A stretch of 64,000 bases of DNA from an uncultured Desulfobacteraceae bacterium. Lineage in GTDB: Bacteria > Desulfobacterota > Desulfobacteria > Desulfobacterales > JALSRD01. The notes beneath the pieces are model-generated. The model did not search any database and was not told the DNA's origin. It was given only the letters and a program-made list of their open reading frames with translations. The DNA is taken from positions 14,980 to 78,979 of the forward strand of contig CAYZCL010000073.1 in assembly GCA_964476595.1 (NCBI GenBank). Direction: 5' to 3'. The stretch's first letter is position 1; the number at the start of each line of letters is the position of its first letter. Position numbers and translations under genes: made by a program. Of this stretch, positions 57,358 through 64,000 are shown one piece after another.

Positions 57358-57438
57358 CGAAAGAAAAAGGGCCCCGGGTTTCTCCCGGGGCCCCTTGAAA
57401 ACAGAAAACCCCGGGTGGTGTTGAAGTCCACCCGGGGT
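57358..57438 (-). terminator. Two tandem GC-rich hairpins, each followed by a U-tract, in the aroF leader (attenuator)
   Basis: On the minus strand: ACCCCGGGTGG-ACTTCAACA-CCACCCGGGGT then TTTCTGTTTTC (57438-57396), and GGGCCCCGGG-AGAAA-CCCGGGGCCC then TTTTTCTTTC (57393-57358). Confidence 0.6.
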
Positions 57439-57460
57439 CGACAACGTCCGAAGTTCGGCG

Positions 57461-57544
57461 TCAACCGTCCGGATGAACGCTTCTAAAGCCGAAAAAGAAG
57501 CGTTCGAAACGAAAAAAGCCGGTTTTCCAAAAAGTCGGTTTCAT
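57461..57544 (-). CDS. Phe-rich leader peptide (27 aa) of the aroF-pheA operon
   Basis: Too short for the supplied track. SD GGAGA sits 7 nt before ATG 57544. Hand translation gives [27 protein letters not shown] followed by a stop (8 Phe and 1 Trp in 27 residues). Confidence 0.65.
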
Positions 57545-57570
57545 CTTTTTTTCTCCACTGGCCGGTATCC

Positions 57571-57599
57571 ACTTAGCCGCGTCGCGGCGCGAATGTCAA
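57571..57599 (-). promoter_or_regulatory. Predicted sigma-70 promoter of the leader-aroF-pheA unit
   Basis: On the minus strand: an A8 tract, then TTGACA (57599-57594), a 17-nt spacer, then CTAAGT (57576-57571). Confidence 0.4.
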
Positions 57600-57833
57600 T
57601 GTTTTTTTTGGTACGGCCGACAGCCGTTTTCATAAACTCCAGCCGGTAGGTCAAAGGGAGAACCCCGTTTTGAGGTCATCCCATGAGACGCGCGTTTCGG
57701 AATCGACGCAGGCCGCCCGGGCAACTCTCAAGTATGGACAATCAGTGCATCGCTTTTTCCGAAAAAGCATGTATATCGCTGGAAAAAGACTTTCTACGAA
57801 TTGCCAGGCCGATGCCAAATCCGGGTTTGGGAA

Positions 57834-60800
57834 TCAGGCCAGTCGTTCGTTGTCGGAGCCTGCCCGCCTGTCGCGCTCGAAGCCGATGAAAAACGACAGC
57901 AGGGCCGGTACCACGAAGAGGGTGAAGACGGTGGAGACCGCCAGGCCGCCGAGCAGCACGCTGCCCAGGCCGCGGTAGAGTTCGCTGCCGGGGCCGGTGG
58001 AGAGCACCAGCGGCAGCATGCCGAAGAGACTGGTGGTGGCGCTCATGAAGATGGGGCGGATGCGGGTGCGCACGGACTCCAGGATGGCTTCGGTGCCGGC
58101 CAGGCCGTTGTAGCGCACGTTGTTCAGGGCCTGGTGCACGATGAGGATGGCGTTGTTGACCACCGTGCCCACCAGGATGACGAAGCCCAGCATGGTGACA
58201 ATGTCGAAGGACTGGGGCGCGATGAAGCGGTTGACCAGGTCGAGGCCCAGGAACCCGCCGGCGCCCGCCAGGGGCACGCTGAAGAGGATGATCAGGGGAT
58301 AGAAGAAGTTTTCGAACAGCGCCGCCATGAGCAGGTAGATGATGACGGTGGACAGCAGCAGGTACCACTGCATGGCCGCCAGGGCCTGGGAGAGCTTGTC
58401 GGCGTTGCCGCCCACCGTGACCGCCACCCCGGACAGCTTGCCGGCTTTGTTCAGGCCGCCGATGATGTCGCGCTGGATGGTTTCCATGGCGGCCTGCAGG
58501 GGCACTTCGCGGCTGGGGGTGACCTCCAGCTTGATGTTGCGGCGGCGCTCGAGGTGATCGATCTGCGTCATGCCCTGGCTGTACTGCAGACGGGCCACGT
58601 CGGCGATGCGGATCAGCCTGCCGTAGCCGTTGGCGATGGGGCTGTCGGCGATGTCCTCGGGGGCCGTGACGTGGCTCGGGTCGGAACGCAGCACGAGGTC
58701 GATCTTCTTGGCCTGCTCGGGCTTGTACTCGCCCACCTTGCGGCCGTCCATGATGACGTCCACGTAAAGGCCGACCTCCTCCTCGGTCATCCCGTTGGCC
58801 ACCACCCGCGAGCGGTCGGGAACGAAGTTGACCTCCGGATAGCTGTTCTCCAGCGAGGGCACCGGCCGCACCTGGGCCCCGGGCATGCGTTTGCGGATGG
58901 CGCCGAACAGGGTGCGCGCCGCCTGGATGATGGTGTCCACCGAACGGCCGGAAACGTCGACCTCCACCGTTCGGCCGCGGCCGATGCCGCTCTGGAAGAT
59001 CCCCGACTGGATGCTGACGCCGTAGATGCCCGGCATGCTGTGGATGATGCGCGTGAACAGCGGCATCATCTCGCGGGCGCGGGTCTCGTGGGCGCTGATG
59101 GCGCCGAAAAGCGTCATGCGGTCGGCCGACACGTAGAAGATGTTCTTGATACGGGGGATGCCGTCCTTGAAGTCGCTCTCGTAGTAAGGTCGCGTGGCCT
59201 TGAAGATGAAATCGCCCAACTGCCGGCGCTTGGTGATGGAGTAGCCCGGCGGCGGGATCAGGATGTTGAGGATCAGGTTGCGGTTGCCCTGGGGAAGGTA
59301 CTCGGCCTTGGGCACCAGCAGCCAGGCGGTCAGGCAGGCCGCGCCGGTGAGGATCACCACCGTGGCCAGGCGCGTGGCCGTGTTGCGGATCGACAGCCGC
59401 GAGAGGTTCACCAGCGCGTCGGAGATGCGTGCGCCGAACCGGCCCAAGGCGCCGCCCTTCTGCGCCTTTTTGCGGGCCAGGCGGTAGAAGAGGTGGGTCA
59501 TGGCGGGGATCACGGACACCGACACCAGCAGACTGATGAAAATGGCGAAGGTGATGGCGATGGCAATGTCCTTGAAGAGCTGGCCGGCCTCCTCCTGGAT
59601 GAAGATCACCGGCACGAATACCGCCACGGTGGTGGCCGTGGAGGCCAGCACGGCGCCCCACACCTCGCGGGTGCCGTCCAGCGAGGCCGCAAAGGGGCTC
59701 TTGCCCATGTTGCGGTGGCGGTCGATGTTCTCCAGCACCACGATGGCGTTGTCCACCAGCATGCCCACCGCAAACGAGATTCCCGCCAGGCTGACCACGT
59801 TGAGGCTGCGGTTGAAGATCCACATGAAAACGAAGGTGCCGATCACCGAGATGGGGATGGCCAGGGCCGTGACCAGGGTGGAGCTGACGCTGCGCAGAAA
59901 GAGCAGCAGCACGCCCATGGCCAGCAGACCGCCGACGATCACATTGCGCTTGACGATGGACATGGCGTTGAAGATATACGGGGTCTGCTCGTAGACGATT
60001 TTGAAGCGCAGGTTGTTGTCGGCCAGCAGGCCGGTGTTGAGCCCCTCCACGGCCCGCTTCATGCGGCGGGTGAGGGCGATCACGTTGGCGCCCTGTTCCT
60101 TGCGCACGCCCACCACGATCACCGGCGTGCCGTTGTGCATGACGGCCGTGTCGTTGGTGGCGTAGCCCATGCGCGCCTGGGCCACGTCGCGCAGCGAAAC
60201 CCGGTGGAAGCCGTCGTTTTCCAGCAGGATGTCCAGGGCTTCGGCCGGGCTTTGGAACTGGCTGACGGTGCGGATGCGGTAGTTCATCTTGTGCATGCCC
60301 AGCAGGCCGGCCGACACGTTGCGGTTGGCGGTCTGCAGGCGGTTCATGACGCGGGAGGCGGTCAGGTCGTGGCGGGCCAGGGCCTGGGGTGAAACCACGA
60401 TCTCCAGCTGCTTTTCCGATCCGCCGAAGACGAACAGGGAGCCCACCCCGGGCACGCGCTCCAGGTGCTGGCGGACCTCGTTTTCGAAGAAGGTGCGGTA
60501 GGTGTCGATCTTCTGCGGCGGCCCCTTGCGGGTCATGAGCACCATCCAGATGACCGGCGAGCTCTGGGCGCCGGAGGCCGTGATGACCGGTTTTTCCACG
60601 TTCTGCGGGTAGCGGCGCACCTCGTTGAGCTTGTTGGAGACGCGCAGCAGGGCGGCGTCGATGTCGGTGCCGACCTCGAAGGTCAGCGTGATTTCGCCCA
60701 TGGCGTTGAAGCTGGAGCTCTCCATGAGGGTCAGGCGCTGGATGCCCTTGAGCACGTTCTCCTGCTCCTCGATGATGTCCTTCTCCACCTCGTAGGGCGC

Positions 60801-61055
60801 GGCCCCGGGCCACACGGTGGTCACCGTGATCTGGGGCGCTTCCACGTCGGGCGTCAGTTGGACCGGCAGTTTGCGCAGACCCACCAGTCCGAAGAGCACC
60901 ACCAGGATGACGCCCACGGCCACCGAAACCGGCTTGGAGATGGAGAATTTGATGAAGTCCACGGCTACCGGTCCCCGTCGGTCTGAGGAGGTGGATCGGA
61001 TTTTCGTCGGGTTGCCGCTGGGGCGGTCACGGCTGTCTTCATTTCCGGGCCTCAT
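57834..61055 (-). CDS. RND efflux transporter permease (AcrB/HAE1-like)
   Basis: 12-TM RND pattern (FIKFSISKPVSVAVGVILVVLFG..., two large periplasmic loops). ATG 61055 overlaps the upstream stop (ATGA) and is preceded by AGGAGG. An alternative GTG at 60962 would remove a 31-aa N-terminal extension. Confidence 0.9.
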   Translation of the reverse strand: MRPGNEDSRDRPSGNPTKIRSTSSDRRGPVAVDFIKFSISKPVSVAVGVILVVLFGLVGLRKLPVQLTPDVEAPQITVTTVWPGAAPYEVEKDIIEEQENVLKGIQRLTLMESSSFNAMGEITLTFEVGTDIDAALLRVSNKLNEVRRYPQNVEKPVITASGAQSSPVIWMVLMTRKGPPQKIDTYRTFFENEVRQHLERVPGVGSLFVFGGSEKQLEIVVSPQALARHDLTASRVMNRLQTANRNVSAGLLGMHKMNYRIRTVSQFQSPAEALDILLENDGFHRVSLRDVAQARMGYATNDTAVMHNGTPVIVVGVRKEQGANVIALTRRMKRAVEGLNTGLLADNNLRFKIVYEQTPYIFNAMSIVKRNVIVGGLLAMGVLLLFLRSVSSTLVTALAIPISVIGTFVFMWIFNRSLNVVSLAGISFAVGMLVDNAIVVLENIDRHRNMGKSPFAASLDGTREVWGAVLASTATTVAVFVPVIFIQEEAGQLFKDIAIAITFAIFISLLVSVSVIPAMTHLFYRLARKKAQKGGALGRFGARISDALVNLSRLSIRNTATRLATVVILTGAACLTAWLLVPKAEYLPQGNRNLILNILIPPPGYSITKRRQLGDFIFKATRPYYESDFKDGIPRIKNIFYVSADRMTLFGAISAHETRAREMMPLFTRIIHSMPGIYGVSIQSGIFQSGIGRGRTVEVDVSGRSVDTIIQAARTLFGAIRKRMPGAQVRPVPSLENSYPEVNFVPDRSRVVANGMTEEEVGLYVDVIMDGRKVGEYKPEQAKKIDLVLRSDPSHVTAPEDIADSPIANGYGRLIRIADVARLQYSQGMTQIDHLERRRNIKLEVTPSREVPLQAAMETIQRDIIGGLNKAGKLSGVAVTVGGNADKLSQALAAMQWYLLLSTVIIYLLMAALFENFFYPLIILFSVPLAGAGGFLGLDLVNRFIAPQSFDIVTMLGFVILVGTVVNNAILIVHQALNNVRYNGLAGTEAILESVRTRIRPIFMSATTSLFGMLPLVLSTGPGSELYRGLGSVLLGGLAVSTVFTLFVVPALLSFFIGFERDRRAGSDNERLA

Positions 61056-62503
61056 CCCCTCCTGGCTTTGAACCGCACATAGCGCCGGACAATTCTCTCC
61101 AGCAGCGGCGGCCGCCCCCCGGGTGCATCGCCGCCGGCCGCGAGGCGCACATCGGCCAGGTCGACGGCCTCACCGCCGGGGGCGTACAGCTGCGCGAACA
61201 GGTCGAGCACCTGTTTCCTGACCATTTTCCGGAAGGGCACATGGGCGATCATGCCGTAGGTGGCCGCGCTTCCCGTTTCGGCCAGTTCGGGGTGCGCCCG
61301 CACCGTTTCCACGGCGGCGGCCAGGTCGGCCAGATAGTCGGACGACACTGCGCCGTGGATGGGGGTCACCATGGCGTGCAGGGCGTCGGGCATCTGCAGG
61401 CGGTCGATGTGCCATCCCCGCTTTTCCATCTGGTCGCCCACCGCGAAGATGTCGACCTCCGGGTCCCTCGAACGGTAGGCGAGCAGCGGCCCCGACGGTT
61501 CGCCGACAATCTCCAGCGGGTCGACGGCTGCGATACCGTTCTTCAACGCATCGAAGGCCGCCAGGGTTTCTTGCGCCAGCCGCACGTAGCCCTGCTCGCC
61601 GAACTTTTGCATGGCCGCCCAGGCGGCGGCGTAAGCCCCGCCGGGCCGGGTGCCCAGCAGGGCCGCCGACGCGAACACGCCGCCCGGCCAGTCCTGGTGC
61701 ACGAACATCTGGTGCTTGAGCAGCTCCAGGCGCCGATAGGTGATGGTGGAGGCCCCCTTGGCGGCGAAGCCGTACTTGTGCAGGTCCGCCGAAATGGAGG
61801 TCACGCCCGGCACCCGGTAGTCCCAGGGCGGCAGGCTGCGGCCCGCTTTTTCCATGAACGGCAGGATGAAGCCGCCCACGCAGGCGTCCACGTGCACGGG
61901 AACGCCGCGGTCCGCGCCCAGGCGTCCCAGCTTCTCGATGGGGTCGATGATGCCGTGGGGGTACCCGGGGGCCGACCCCAGGATCATGACCGTGTTGCGG
62001 CTGATCTTTCTCTCGACCGCCGCGGTGTCGACACAGAAGTACTCGTCAAGCGGCGCAAAGACCGGCTTAACGCCGAAGTACTCGGCTCCCTTGAGCCACG
62101 CCACGTGGGCCGTGACGGGAAGTATCATCTCCGGCTTGCGGATGCCCCTGCGGGCGCGTCCGTAGTCGCGGTAGGTCTTGACCGCCAGCAGGCAGCTCTC
62201 GGTGCCGCCGGAGGTCAGCACGCCGCAGACCTCCCCGTCCCCATGGAAGAGTTCGGCGATCATGGCGATGATGTCGCTTTCGATCTTTTTCAGGCTTCGG
62301 AAAGCGGTGGGGTTCAGGCCGTTGGCCGGGGAGTACAGGGCATAGGCCCGGCTGATGAAATGCTCGTGCGCCTCGTCGAGGTAGTACACCAAGCTCCAGG
62401 TCCGGCCGCGCCGGTAGTCGGGGTCGTCTCTGCGCAGGGACGCCAGCTCCGCCAGGATGTCCTCCTCGCGGCGCCCTTGCGGGGGCAGCGTCGGCCTTCT
62501 CAC
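61052..62503 (-). CDS. PLP-dependent enzyme of the sphingosine-1-phosphate lyase / group II decarboxylase family
   Basis: C-terminal 483 aa of track ORF 61052..63562. GTG 62503 (SD GGGAGG 6 nt upstream) overlaps the upstream stop (GTGA). Motifs CGVLTSGGTESCLLAVKTYRD and SISADLHKYGFAAKGAS (PLP Lys) closely resemble the SPL motif SISADTHKYGFAPKG. Confidence 0.85.
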   Translation of the reverse strand: MRRPTLPPQGRREEDILAELASLRRDDPDYRRGRTWSLVYYLDEAHEHFISRAYALYSPANGLNPTAFRSLKKIESDIIAMIAELFHGDGEVCGVLTSGGTESCLLAVKTYRDYGRARRGIRKPEMILPVTAHVAWLKGAEYFGVKPVFAPLDEYFCVDTAAVERKISRNTVMILGSAPGYPHGIIDPIEKLGRLGADRGVPVHVDACVGGFILPFMEKAGRSLPPWDYRVPGVTSISADLHKYGFAAKGASTITYRRLELLKHQMFVHQDWPGGVFASAALLGTRPGGAYAAAWAAMQKFGEQGYVRLAQETLAAFDALKNGIAAVDPLEIVGEPSGPLLAYRSRDPEVDIFAVGDQMEKRGWHIDRLQMPDALHAMVTPIHGAVSSDYLADLAAAVETVRAHPELAETGSAATYGMIAHVPFRKMVRKQVLDLFAQLYAPGGEAVDLADVRLAAGGDAPGGRPPLLERIVRRYVRFKARRG

Positions 62504-63663
62504 GGTGAACCTCCCACCTGCTGCAGTACCAGCGCCAGCGAGATGCCCAGGTAGTTTCCGAGGGCGTAGCCGATGATGCCCGTGGTGATGCCCGAGAGCA
62601 GCACGGAGGGGTTCTTGAGCACGCCCGCCACCATGGGCACGAAGGGCGGGGAACAGATGGCCGACACCGAGGTGACCAGAAAGGTGTCCGTGTCGATGCG
62701 AAAGAGCTTCGACAGCAGGGCGTGCAGCGCCATGCTGCCGAAGATGGAGACCGACACGAAGAACAGGATGGTACCGTCGAGGTGCTCGAGGCGCTTGAGG
62801 TCGGTCATGGAGGCCACCACGAAGCAGAAGATGTAGATGATGTACATGCCGACCTGGAAGCTCTTTTCGATGTGCCGGACGCGGGGAACGAAGGAGAGCA
62901 GGATGCTCAGCGTGGTGATGGACAGGATCGTCACGGCGGCGGCGCGGTCGGCCGGGAACCAGGCGCTGATCTGCAGCGAGGCGGCGATCACGGCACCGGC
63001 CAGCAACAGGGCGCCGGCCAGGGGCAGCAGGATCTTTGCCGAGAAGATGCCCCGGTAGGCGTTGGCCGATTCCGCATCGCAGGAAACCGTTTCGCGCGGC
63101 TCGCCCGCCGGGTGCCGGAAGGGGGGCAGGAAGCGGTTGAAGAGGCGCTGCCCCACCGAGAGAATCAGGAGCAGGTACAGCAGGCTCAGGGCCGCATCGT
63201 AGGTGTGAAAGAGGATGTAGGTGGAATTGTCGACGGACAGCGCGGTCTTGATGGCCGCCAGGTTGGGGGTGCCGCCGGTGTACACGCCCACGGCCATACC
63301 GGCCAGCTGGTAGGCGCCCGCGTCCCCCCGGTGACGCAGCGCAAAAAAAGCCAGGGTGCTCACCGCCAGGACGGCCGCCACCGCCAGCAGCATGGAAACG
63401 ATGGCCTTGCCCGCGATGGCGAACCACTGGCGCACGTCCATGGAAAACAGCAGCAGCGGCAGCGACAGCGCCACGGTGGCCTCGGTAAGAGCGGACTGCA
63501 GCGGCAGGACGGCGCCGGGCAGCACGCCGGCGTTGCCCAGTACGATGCCGCCGGCATAGCACAGCAGCACGGCGCCGATGGCGTCCAGCACGCGGTAGCG
63601 CGCGGTGAGCCAGAGCACCCCCGCGGGGAAGAAGAGGGCGGTGATGACGAAAGCGGTGTTCAT
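62500..63663 (-). CDS. Polytopic membrane protein (DUF819/YjcL-like, by recollection)
   Basis: 387 aa with about 10-12 hydrophobic segments. Starts MNTAFVITALFFPAGVLWL. Contains the GGTPNLAAIK motif. Family naming was not verified. Confidence 0.6.
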   Translation of the reverse strand: MNTAFVITALFFPAGVLWLTARYRVLDAIGAVLLCYAGGIVLGNAGVLPGAVLPLQSALTEATVALSLPLLLFSMDVRQWFAIAGKAIVSMLLAVAAVLAVSTLAFFALRHRGDAGAYQLAGMAVGVYTGGTPNLAAIKTALSVDNSTYILFHTYDAALSLLYLLLILSVGQRLFNRFLPPFRHPAGEPRETVSCDAESANAYRGIFSAKILLPLAGALLLAGAVIAASLQISAWFPADRAAAVTILSITTLSILLSFVPRVRHIEKSFQVGMYIIYIFCFVVASMTDLKRLEHLDGTILFFVSVSIFGSMALHALLSKLFRIDTDTFLVTSVSAICSPPFVPMVAGVLKNPSVLLSGITTGIIGYALGNYLGISLALVLQQVGGSP

Positions 63664-63666
63664 CGA

Positions 63667-64000
63667 TCAGGGCTTCCCGGTGATTTTGACCGGCTGGTCC
63701 GGCCGCAGGCGTTCGTTGCCGTCGACCACCACCGGCATGCCAGCCACGATGTAAGGGGCGGCCACGCCGACGTACTCGCCGTCCACGGCGGCGATTTCCA
63801 CCGGCAGGATCCTGGCGCGGCCGTCCTTGACGGTATAGACGAAATCCTTGCCCTGGAAACGCACCAGGGCGTCGCGCTGGATCATCCTGAGCTTCCTGCG
63901 CGGGCTGGACGGCACGTTGACGGCCGCCGACATGTTCATGATGACGTCATCGAAATAGGGGATGGCGATCTTGATCTGGAAGGTCTTGCTGCGGGGGTCG
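63667..64000 (-). CDS. RND efflux periplasmic adaptor (MFP) subunit, C-terminal part only. The N-terminus lies beyond the window.
   Basis: The reading frame stays open to position 64000. Hand translation gives ...PRSKTFQIKIAIPYFDDVIMNMSAAVNVP...VRFQGKDFVYTVKDGRARILPVEI..., typical of the MFP beta-barrel and membrane-proximal domains. The stop is 3 nt before the next ATG. Confidence 0.8.
   Translation of the reverse strand, partial: DPRSKTFQIKIAIPYFDDVIMNMSAAVNVPSSPRRKLRMIQRDALVRFQGKDFVYTVKDGRARILPVEIAAVDGEYVGVAAPYIVAGMPVVVDGNERLRPDQPVKITGKP

Follow-up and report, generated by a model that had tools for sequence, protein, structure and literature searches.

Among the pyridoxal 5'-phosphate (PLP) enzymes of the sphingosine-1-phosphate lyase (SPL) family, structures are available for StSPL of Symbiobacterium thermophilum (PDB 3MAD, 3MAU and 5EUD), human SGPL1 (4Q6R) and yeast Dpl1p (3MC6), and StSPL cleaves sphingosine-1-phosphate (S1P) in vitro (PMC3148216). 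Here we describe an enzyme of the same fold and subfamily encoded in a 64,000-nt window from an uncultured Desulfobacteraceae bacterium of sulfate-reducer type (G000:C73:14980-78979, on a contig that extends 5 kb further; coordinates without a label refer to this window). Its gene follows that of a DUF819 membrane protein, and this pair, which we will call the cassette, lies between the adaptor and pump genes of a resistance-nodulation-division (RND) efflux system. As in RND systems of the AcrAB/MdtABC type, an adaptor and an HAE1-type permease with 12 transmembrane segments are found by a MarR regulator; unlike in them, two unrelated genes separate adaptor and pump. The outer-membrane factor (OMF) would be encoded elsewhere, as tolC is for acrAB in Escherichia coli. 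The cassette resembles AspT-AspD and GadC-GadB in its two-gene layout, with a carrier of the AspT fold class and an enzyme of the group II decarboxylase fold, but the window enzyme sits on the lyase branch and the likeness is one of layout and fold class only. All the parts of the locus belong to known families, and the cassette is a widespread, uncharacterised unit. New here are its insertion between adaptor and pump, the limitation of this arrangement to a single genus, a remnant left by deletion in a congener, and one class of membrane partner, that of the major facilitator superfamily (MFS).

Pfam and NCBIfam profiles confirmed the gene content and order given in the earlier note on this DNA. 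On the minus strand, the adaptor (membrane fusion protein) gene, of which the window holds the 3' part (63667-64000; TIGR01730 RND_mfp), is followed by the first cassette gene, for a DUF819 polytopic membrane protein of 387 aa (62500-63663; PF05684, 128.9 bits), and by the second, for a soluble SPL-family PLP enzyme of 483 aa with a GTG start (61052-62503; StSPL match, Pyridoxal_deC). The inner-membrane pump, of the RND HAE1 type, comes last (57834-60962; ACR_tran, 667 bits; 1042 aa when read from GTG 60962). With an ACR_tran permease and a co-encoded periplasmic adaptor (PF00873, TIGR01730, HlyD_D23), the outer genes have what defines a tripartite RND system of the HAE1 type. The pump scored 584 bits against a multidrug equivalog cut-off of 1250 bits and gave about 300 bits with MdtB and AcrB in the PDB. 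No OMF gene had been seen in the window, and there is none on the whole of contig C73; ten OEP-family genes are located elsewhere in the genome.

In the comparisons that follow, G000 is the window genome, G001, G002 and G003 are its congeners, and L-numbers denote loci or sequence stretches. The four-gene order was found in three places only: G000, G002 (a Desulfobacteraceae metagenome-assembled genome, MAG; L020/L037) and the metagenome scaffold L121, so the synteny, whose recurrence the earlier note had proposed to check, is restricted to one lineage. Ten genomes of sister families have orthologous adaptor-pump pairs 0-400 nt apart with no cassette, and a very permissive tblastn search found no cassette remnant between adaptor and pump of the closest of these orthologues, where the spacers measure 272-400 nt; an eleventh pump orthologue (L126) had no adaptor in the 1.5 kb fetched upstream. 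The congener G001 has an intact adaptor (87% identity) and pump (88-90%), while the cassette has been reduced to a remnant (L120 4367-4849, G001:C111). This remnant is one uninterrupted chimeric open reading frame (ORF) of 160 codons that joins residues 1-56 of DUF819 to residues 1-59 and ~289-325 of the enzyme, with its start right behind the adaptor stop and its end 2 nt short of the pump ATG. In the third congener, G003, the locus was not found at the threshold used. The simplest history for these sequences would be that the cassette entered the adaptor-pump spacer once, in the ancestor of the genus, and later suffered internal deletions in G001. The GC content of the cassette gave no sign of a recent foreign origin. 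The unbroken frame of the G001 remnant and its tight junctions might point to a role for translation across the spacer in pump expression, or only to recent deletions.

The cassette is far more widespread than this arrangement. Homologues of the enzyme number thousands; the best 120, at 61-85% identity and with a length of about 480 aa, are from very diverse taxa. A membrane partner is encoded immediately upstream of the enzyme in 81 of the 85 loci of its clade, across at least 8 phyla (DUF819 in 52, DedA in 24 and an MFS protein in 5, the last of the ACS/OPA organic-anion type). Of 80 genome loci that we sampled with 10-kb flanks, 48 have a same-strand DUF819 gene immediately before the enzyme gene and 23 a DedA/VTT gene in that position; those lacking both were mostly cut by contig ends. 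Clustering of the neighbours over ±6 kb of these 80 loci revealed no third conserved gene, and in particular no kinase, aldehyde dehydrogenase, phosphatase or regulator. The conserved unit is thus the DUF819-enzyme middle pair only, and more than 80 loci elsewhere have it but no pump. Outside the genus an RND adaptor-pump pair was near the cassette in a single case among about 80 loci and in a different order, L115 (9363-13497), where DedA and SPL-like genes are followed after 290 nt by adaptor and pump; this may be coincidence, as the gene family is so common that about one such adjacency would be expected at random. Since the pump is kept without the cassette in G001 and the cassette thrives without pumps, the two appear to be separable modules. 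Their linkage, as far as these genomes tell, is confined to one genus and already decaying in a sister species.

In a maximum-likelihood tree the transporter-linked enzymes formed one clade of 85 sequences, including the basal L021, with an approximate likelihood-ratio test (aLRT) support of 99. DedA-linked and MFS-linked enzymes are nested among the DUF819-linked ones, for which reason DUF819 looks like the older partner, replaced by non-homologous membrane proteins. Such replacement is the pattern expected of a transporter that serves the enzyme. A second, separate clade (aLRT 99) contains SPLs of the same family, 40-43% identical to the window enzyme and from the same bacterial order, whose genes adjoin an FGGY kinase or an aldehyde:ferredoxin oxidoreductase (AOR). 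In these the head-group residues are canonical and the gene content follows a phosphorylate-then-cleave logic; in the window the enzyme has a transporter as partner in place of the FGGY kinase or AOR. Sister genomes of the order carry the FGGY-kinase-linked form in L023, L027 and L029 and the AOR-linked form in L025. In the basal L021 (7727-10372, G039:C28) the enzyme gene precedes DUF819, the reverse order, behind an ETF-alpha gene. We also noticed a third, very divergent SPL-like clade (L030 6855-8240, L031 6368-7741 and L033 6904-8268) with D at position 129 and without Y482; its genes are always followed by one for a protein of about 455 aa without Pfam match, and in L033 they adjoin a TauE-like gene.

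That the enzyme belongs to the SPL branch, as the earlier note had claimed, is borne out by the scores. StSPL was matched at 1.5e-120 (406 bits) and human SPL at 1e-104 (351 bits), against 1e-29 (104 bits) for MfnA and 94 bits for GAD, so that it does not group with the housekeeping decarboxylases. It is about 50% identical to StSPL, and the SPL-like motif SISADLHKYGFAAKGAS reported for its PLP-lysine region is indeed there. Compared with StSPL and the eukaryotic SPLs, it is without a segment of ~65 residues at the N-terminus and has a basic C-terminal tail of ~45 residues. We mapped it onto the residue table of characterised S1P lyases (PMC6148460, PMC10243590), using StSPL numbering with the window enzyme in second place. 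The residues around the cofactor, that is the PLP lysine with its phosphate cup and His/Cys sandwich, are all retained (K311=K243, H310=H242, D274=D206, C276=C208, H201=H133, G168/T169=G100/T101) and do not change across the clade. Also retained are Y105=Y40, N126=N61, K317=K249 and Y482=Y416.

The pocket for the substrate head group is different. The contacts with the substrate phosphate tabulated for S1P lyases (EC 4.1.2.27; PMC6148460) are A103/T, Y105, N126, H129/Q, K317 and S353, and this set is incomplete in the enzyme: A103 is replaced by L38, H129 by N64 and S353 by T285, and S101-G102 has become W36-S37. Nearby, small residues have given way to bulky ones (L283, Y291, W136 and W227). 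All of these changes are found in 99-100% of 84 cassette-clade sequences, in which the gene is transporter-linked and never beside a kinase; at the three contact positions the kinase-linked clade has A/T, H/Q and S, like the characterised enzymes. Because the whole transporter-linked clade differs at three head-group contacts and no kinase was found among the neighbours of the cassette loci, the enzyme is probably not a true S1P lyase. The AlphaFold2 (AF2) monomer had low confidence in the dimer-interface loops that bear the head-group residues and was not used for pocket geometry. The length of any chain cannot be read from the sequence either, since the acyl-chain-binding residues of S1P lyases are not known for any member (PMC5234717).

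The partner encoded in the window belongs to PF05684, a family that has been grouped with CitS, GltS and AspT (PMC8396727). Its AF2 model (pLDDT 86.7) found the Na+/citrate symporter CitS as its best PDB match over the full length, with template-modelling scores of 0.54-0.60 and the two-repeat elevator architecture of the re-entrant carriers of the DUF819/CPA-AT type. Judged by the model, DUF819 is a secondary carrier of CitS-like elevator fold. Our literature searches on DUF819 returned its fold classification and a variable slot in Neisseria, nothing more, and those on the cassette or on SPL homologues in the genera that carry it returned nothing relevant. A scan of nine cassette loci with Rfam gave no riboswitch to name a ligand.

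Taking these results together, we lean towards a standard adaptor-RND operon next to a MarR gene, into which an autonomous carrier/SPL-family cassette that cleaves an imported anionic amino compound has been inserted, and we regard this as somewhat probable. The insertion, into the spacer between adaptor and pump, would date from the ancestor of this Desulfobacterales genus, and the cassette would now share the promoter of the pump. The DUF819 carrier would bring in or flip an anionic amino compound, one whose head group differs from the phosphate of S1P and which requires no phosphorylation. The enzyme would then form an external aldimine and break a bond at the amine-bearing carbon by PLP chemistry of the SPL type; retro-aldol cleavage is the most likely reaction, given that C276 and Y482, both typical of the lyases, are retained, and decarboxylation is possible. 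Cassette and pump would be co-expressed in this genus, neither depending on the other. The sequences themselves show which genes are present, how the cassette was inserted and lost, that it is conserved and which residues the enzyme has; the direction of transport, the type of reaction and the class of substrate are what we infer.

Some of our data weigh against this reading, and several of them would fit a common task for pump and cassette. The substrate may carry a lipid tail, given the acyl-chain residues just mentioned. The same Y482 and C276 are typical of lyases, and an active Burkholderia S1P lyase tolerates Q at position 129, so that H129N alone is not disqualifying. Among the partners, the DedA proteins have some similarity to UptA, a flippase of undecaprenyl phosphate (51 bits, far under the cut-off of the model), and this sits more easily with a lipid phosphate than with a small solute as substrate. 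The tight junctions kept in G000, G002 and L121, along with the adjacency in L115, could represent a real functional link. Such a link would exist if a single amphiphile were handled in two tiers: the pump would expel a toxic amino lipid with a long chain (a base of the sphingoid type or an anionic derivative) from the periplasm or the outer leaflet, DUF819 or DedA would flip the rest inwards, the enzyme would destroy it in the cytoplasm, and co-transcription would be functional. A further point in its favour is L034, where the cassette lies behind an MsbA-like ATP-binding cassette (ABC) exporter in a closely spaced gene run. We consider this scenario unlikely, given the more than 80 cassette loci without any pump, the loss of the cassette but not of the pump in G001, a single RND adjacency at chance level, the CitS-fold and ACS/OPA-type MFS partners, which suggest small hydrophilic anions, and the missing kinase that would form a phosphate ester. 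The dedicated cleave-and-export system of the earlier note is hard to maintain in view of the genus-only order, the pumpless cassettes, the cassette-free pumps of sister families and the loss in G001.

The turnover of sphingoid-base phosphates, which had also been put forward, loses weight as a reading, because the head-group pocket is remodelled and a kinase is missing. The identity of about half the residues with StSPL, together with the retention of all cofactor residues and of Y105, N126 and K317, would still be compatible with a genuine sphingosine- or sphinganine-1-phosphate lyase that turns over the cell's own or scavenged sphingolipids. Such a lyase splits long-chain base 1-phosphates into phosphoethanolamine and a fatty aldehyde. 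Against it stand the three contacts replaced clade-wide while the paralogous kinase-linked clade is canonical, the absence of a linked kinase and the distribution of the clade, which includes Comamonadaceae, Roseobacteraceae, Halieaceae, Clostridia and Spirochaetota. To our knowledge these groups are not known for sphingolipids, and we give such a lyase very little credence. An exchange module like GadBC or AspDT, in which DUF819 would swap an anionic amino acid (phosphoserine, cysteate or aspartate, for example) for the amine produced by decarboxylation, with a gain in proton-motive force or pH relief, would agree with a self-contained pair of transporter and group-II-fold enzyme found across phyla, with the fold class that DUF819 shares with AspT and GltS (PMC8396727) and with MfnA and GAD as next nearest families. 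It appears equally improbable to us, as the similarity to lyases exceeds that to any decarboxylase by ~300 bits, the SPL-specific C276 and Y482 are conserved, and DedA partners are not known exchangers.

A bolder proposal, which we hold to be quite unlikely, is that the transporter-linked clade represents a new PLP lyase for amino-alcohols with an anionic head group other than a phosphate ester, which in this genus would act together with the RND pump in a pump-and-destroy defence. Candidates for the substrate are sulfonate sphingoid analogues (of the capnine/cysteinolate type) or beta-hydroxy amino acids; with a sulfonate the products would be taurine and an aldehyde. If true, it would account for the lack of a kinase and the remodelled pocket as well as for the organic-anion carriers and the TauE genes next to some loci. 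A TauE gene is downstream in 4 of the 24 DedA-type loci, and with this number a link to taurine or sulfonates stays speculation.

Part of the translational coupling described in the earlier note stood up. The adaptor stop is separated by a 3-nt gap from the DUF819 ATG, and the DUF819 stop overlaps the enzyme GTG as GTGA, with GGGAGG 8 nt ahead of the GTG; the GTGA overlap is also kept in G002. Overlapping codons do not by themselves imply the stoichiometric co-expression that had been read from them. The third junction, an ATGA in which the enzyme TGA overlaps ATG 61055, in frame with the pump in G000, probably is not the start of the pump. The ACR_tran alignment begins at residue 34 of the version read from this ATG, and those with MdtB and AcrB at residues 32-38. 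In G002 the pump starts at ATG-GAC-TTT (M-D-F-I-K-F), 12 nt past the enzyme stop, and the ATG within GGATGA is out of frame with it; the scaffold L121 has the same start and 12-nt spacer. Eleven pump orthologues (45-73% identity) align from query residue 30-35 and begin at M-DFIKF, whose equivalent in G000 is GTG 60962; this start is common to all orthologues at 54-95% identity. An 89-nt spacer on the minus strand (60963-61051, delimited by comparison with G002 and L121) reaches from the enzyme stop to this codon and contains ~78 extra nt that are absent from G002 and L121, open and in frame with ATG 61055, from which the pump would gain 31 low-complexity residues. As relatives start at M-DFIKF and the insertion is unique to G000, the conserved start is probably GTG 60962, a possibility that the earlier note had itself raised, and the ATGA overlap would be at best a G000-specific extension. 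The insertion was considered as a repeat element and rejected, as it is single-copy in the genome.

Past the window the full adaptor gene reaches the equivalent of position 64713 (ATG) or 64731 (TTG); its ORF (L002 647-1711) matches HlyD_D23 and HlyD_3, and the encoded N-terminus resembles a signal peptide. Beyond it are ~340 bp of intergenic DNA, with two promoter-like sites on the operon strand where 0.2 would be expected, then a divergent MarR gene and a second adaptor and RND pump (L002 2053-5976). No promoter-like site was found inside the four-gene operon, which supports the sequence-based view that the four genes form one tight transcription unit and that the cassette is co-transcribed with the pump. 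The unit is likely to end at a terminator-like hairpin on the minus strand (57366-57396; 13-bp stem, 10 G-C pairs, T-run) ~440 nt past the pump stop, beyond which begin a DAHP-synthase gene and unrelated aromatic-amino-acid genes. The earlier note was to be abandoned if the arrangement proved unique and had internal promoters, or if its overlaps came from mis-called starts. Lineage restriction was found and internal promoter-like sites were not; because the arrangement is so restricted and the ATGA is probably a mis-called start, these objections largely apply.

We record a few further details of the surroundings. The intergenic 340 bp shared by the two transcription units contain GC-rich palindromes (L002 1845-1924), and the part with MarR, second adaptor and second pump is kept in G001. 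The ~440 nt behind the pump are non-coding and of lower GC in the window (57397-57833); their counterpart in G001 is ~1.2 kb of unrelated sequence (L120 7975-9175). In a Desulfobacterales MAG, a group II intron domain (RF02005; L039 4681-4791) is located just 3' of a DUF819-SPL cassette.

SPL homologues are widespread among bacteria for which no sphingolipid synthesis is known. The RND context described here is a clean case of the insertion of a cassette into an operon spacer followed by its erosion in a sister species, and it cautions that a single instance of translational coupling is a poor guide to function. The locus helps to split the bacterial SPL homologues into a kinase-linked class with the canonical pocket and a transporter-linked class with an altered one. 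Cultured carriers of the latter, such as Ruegeria haliotis, Sulfitobacter sp. JB4-11, Thalassotalea litorea, Ramlibacter pallidus and Curvibacter sp. APW13, are the organisms in which its substrate could be found.

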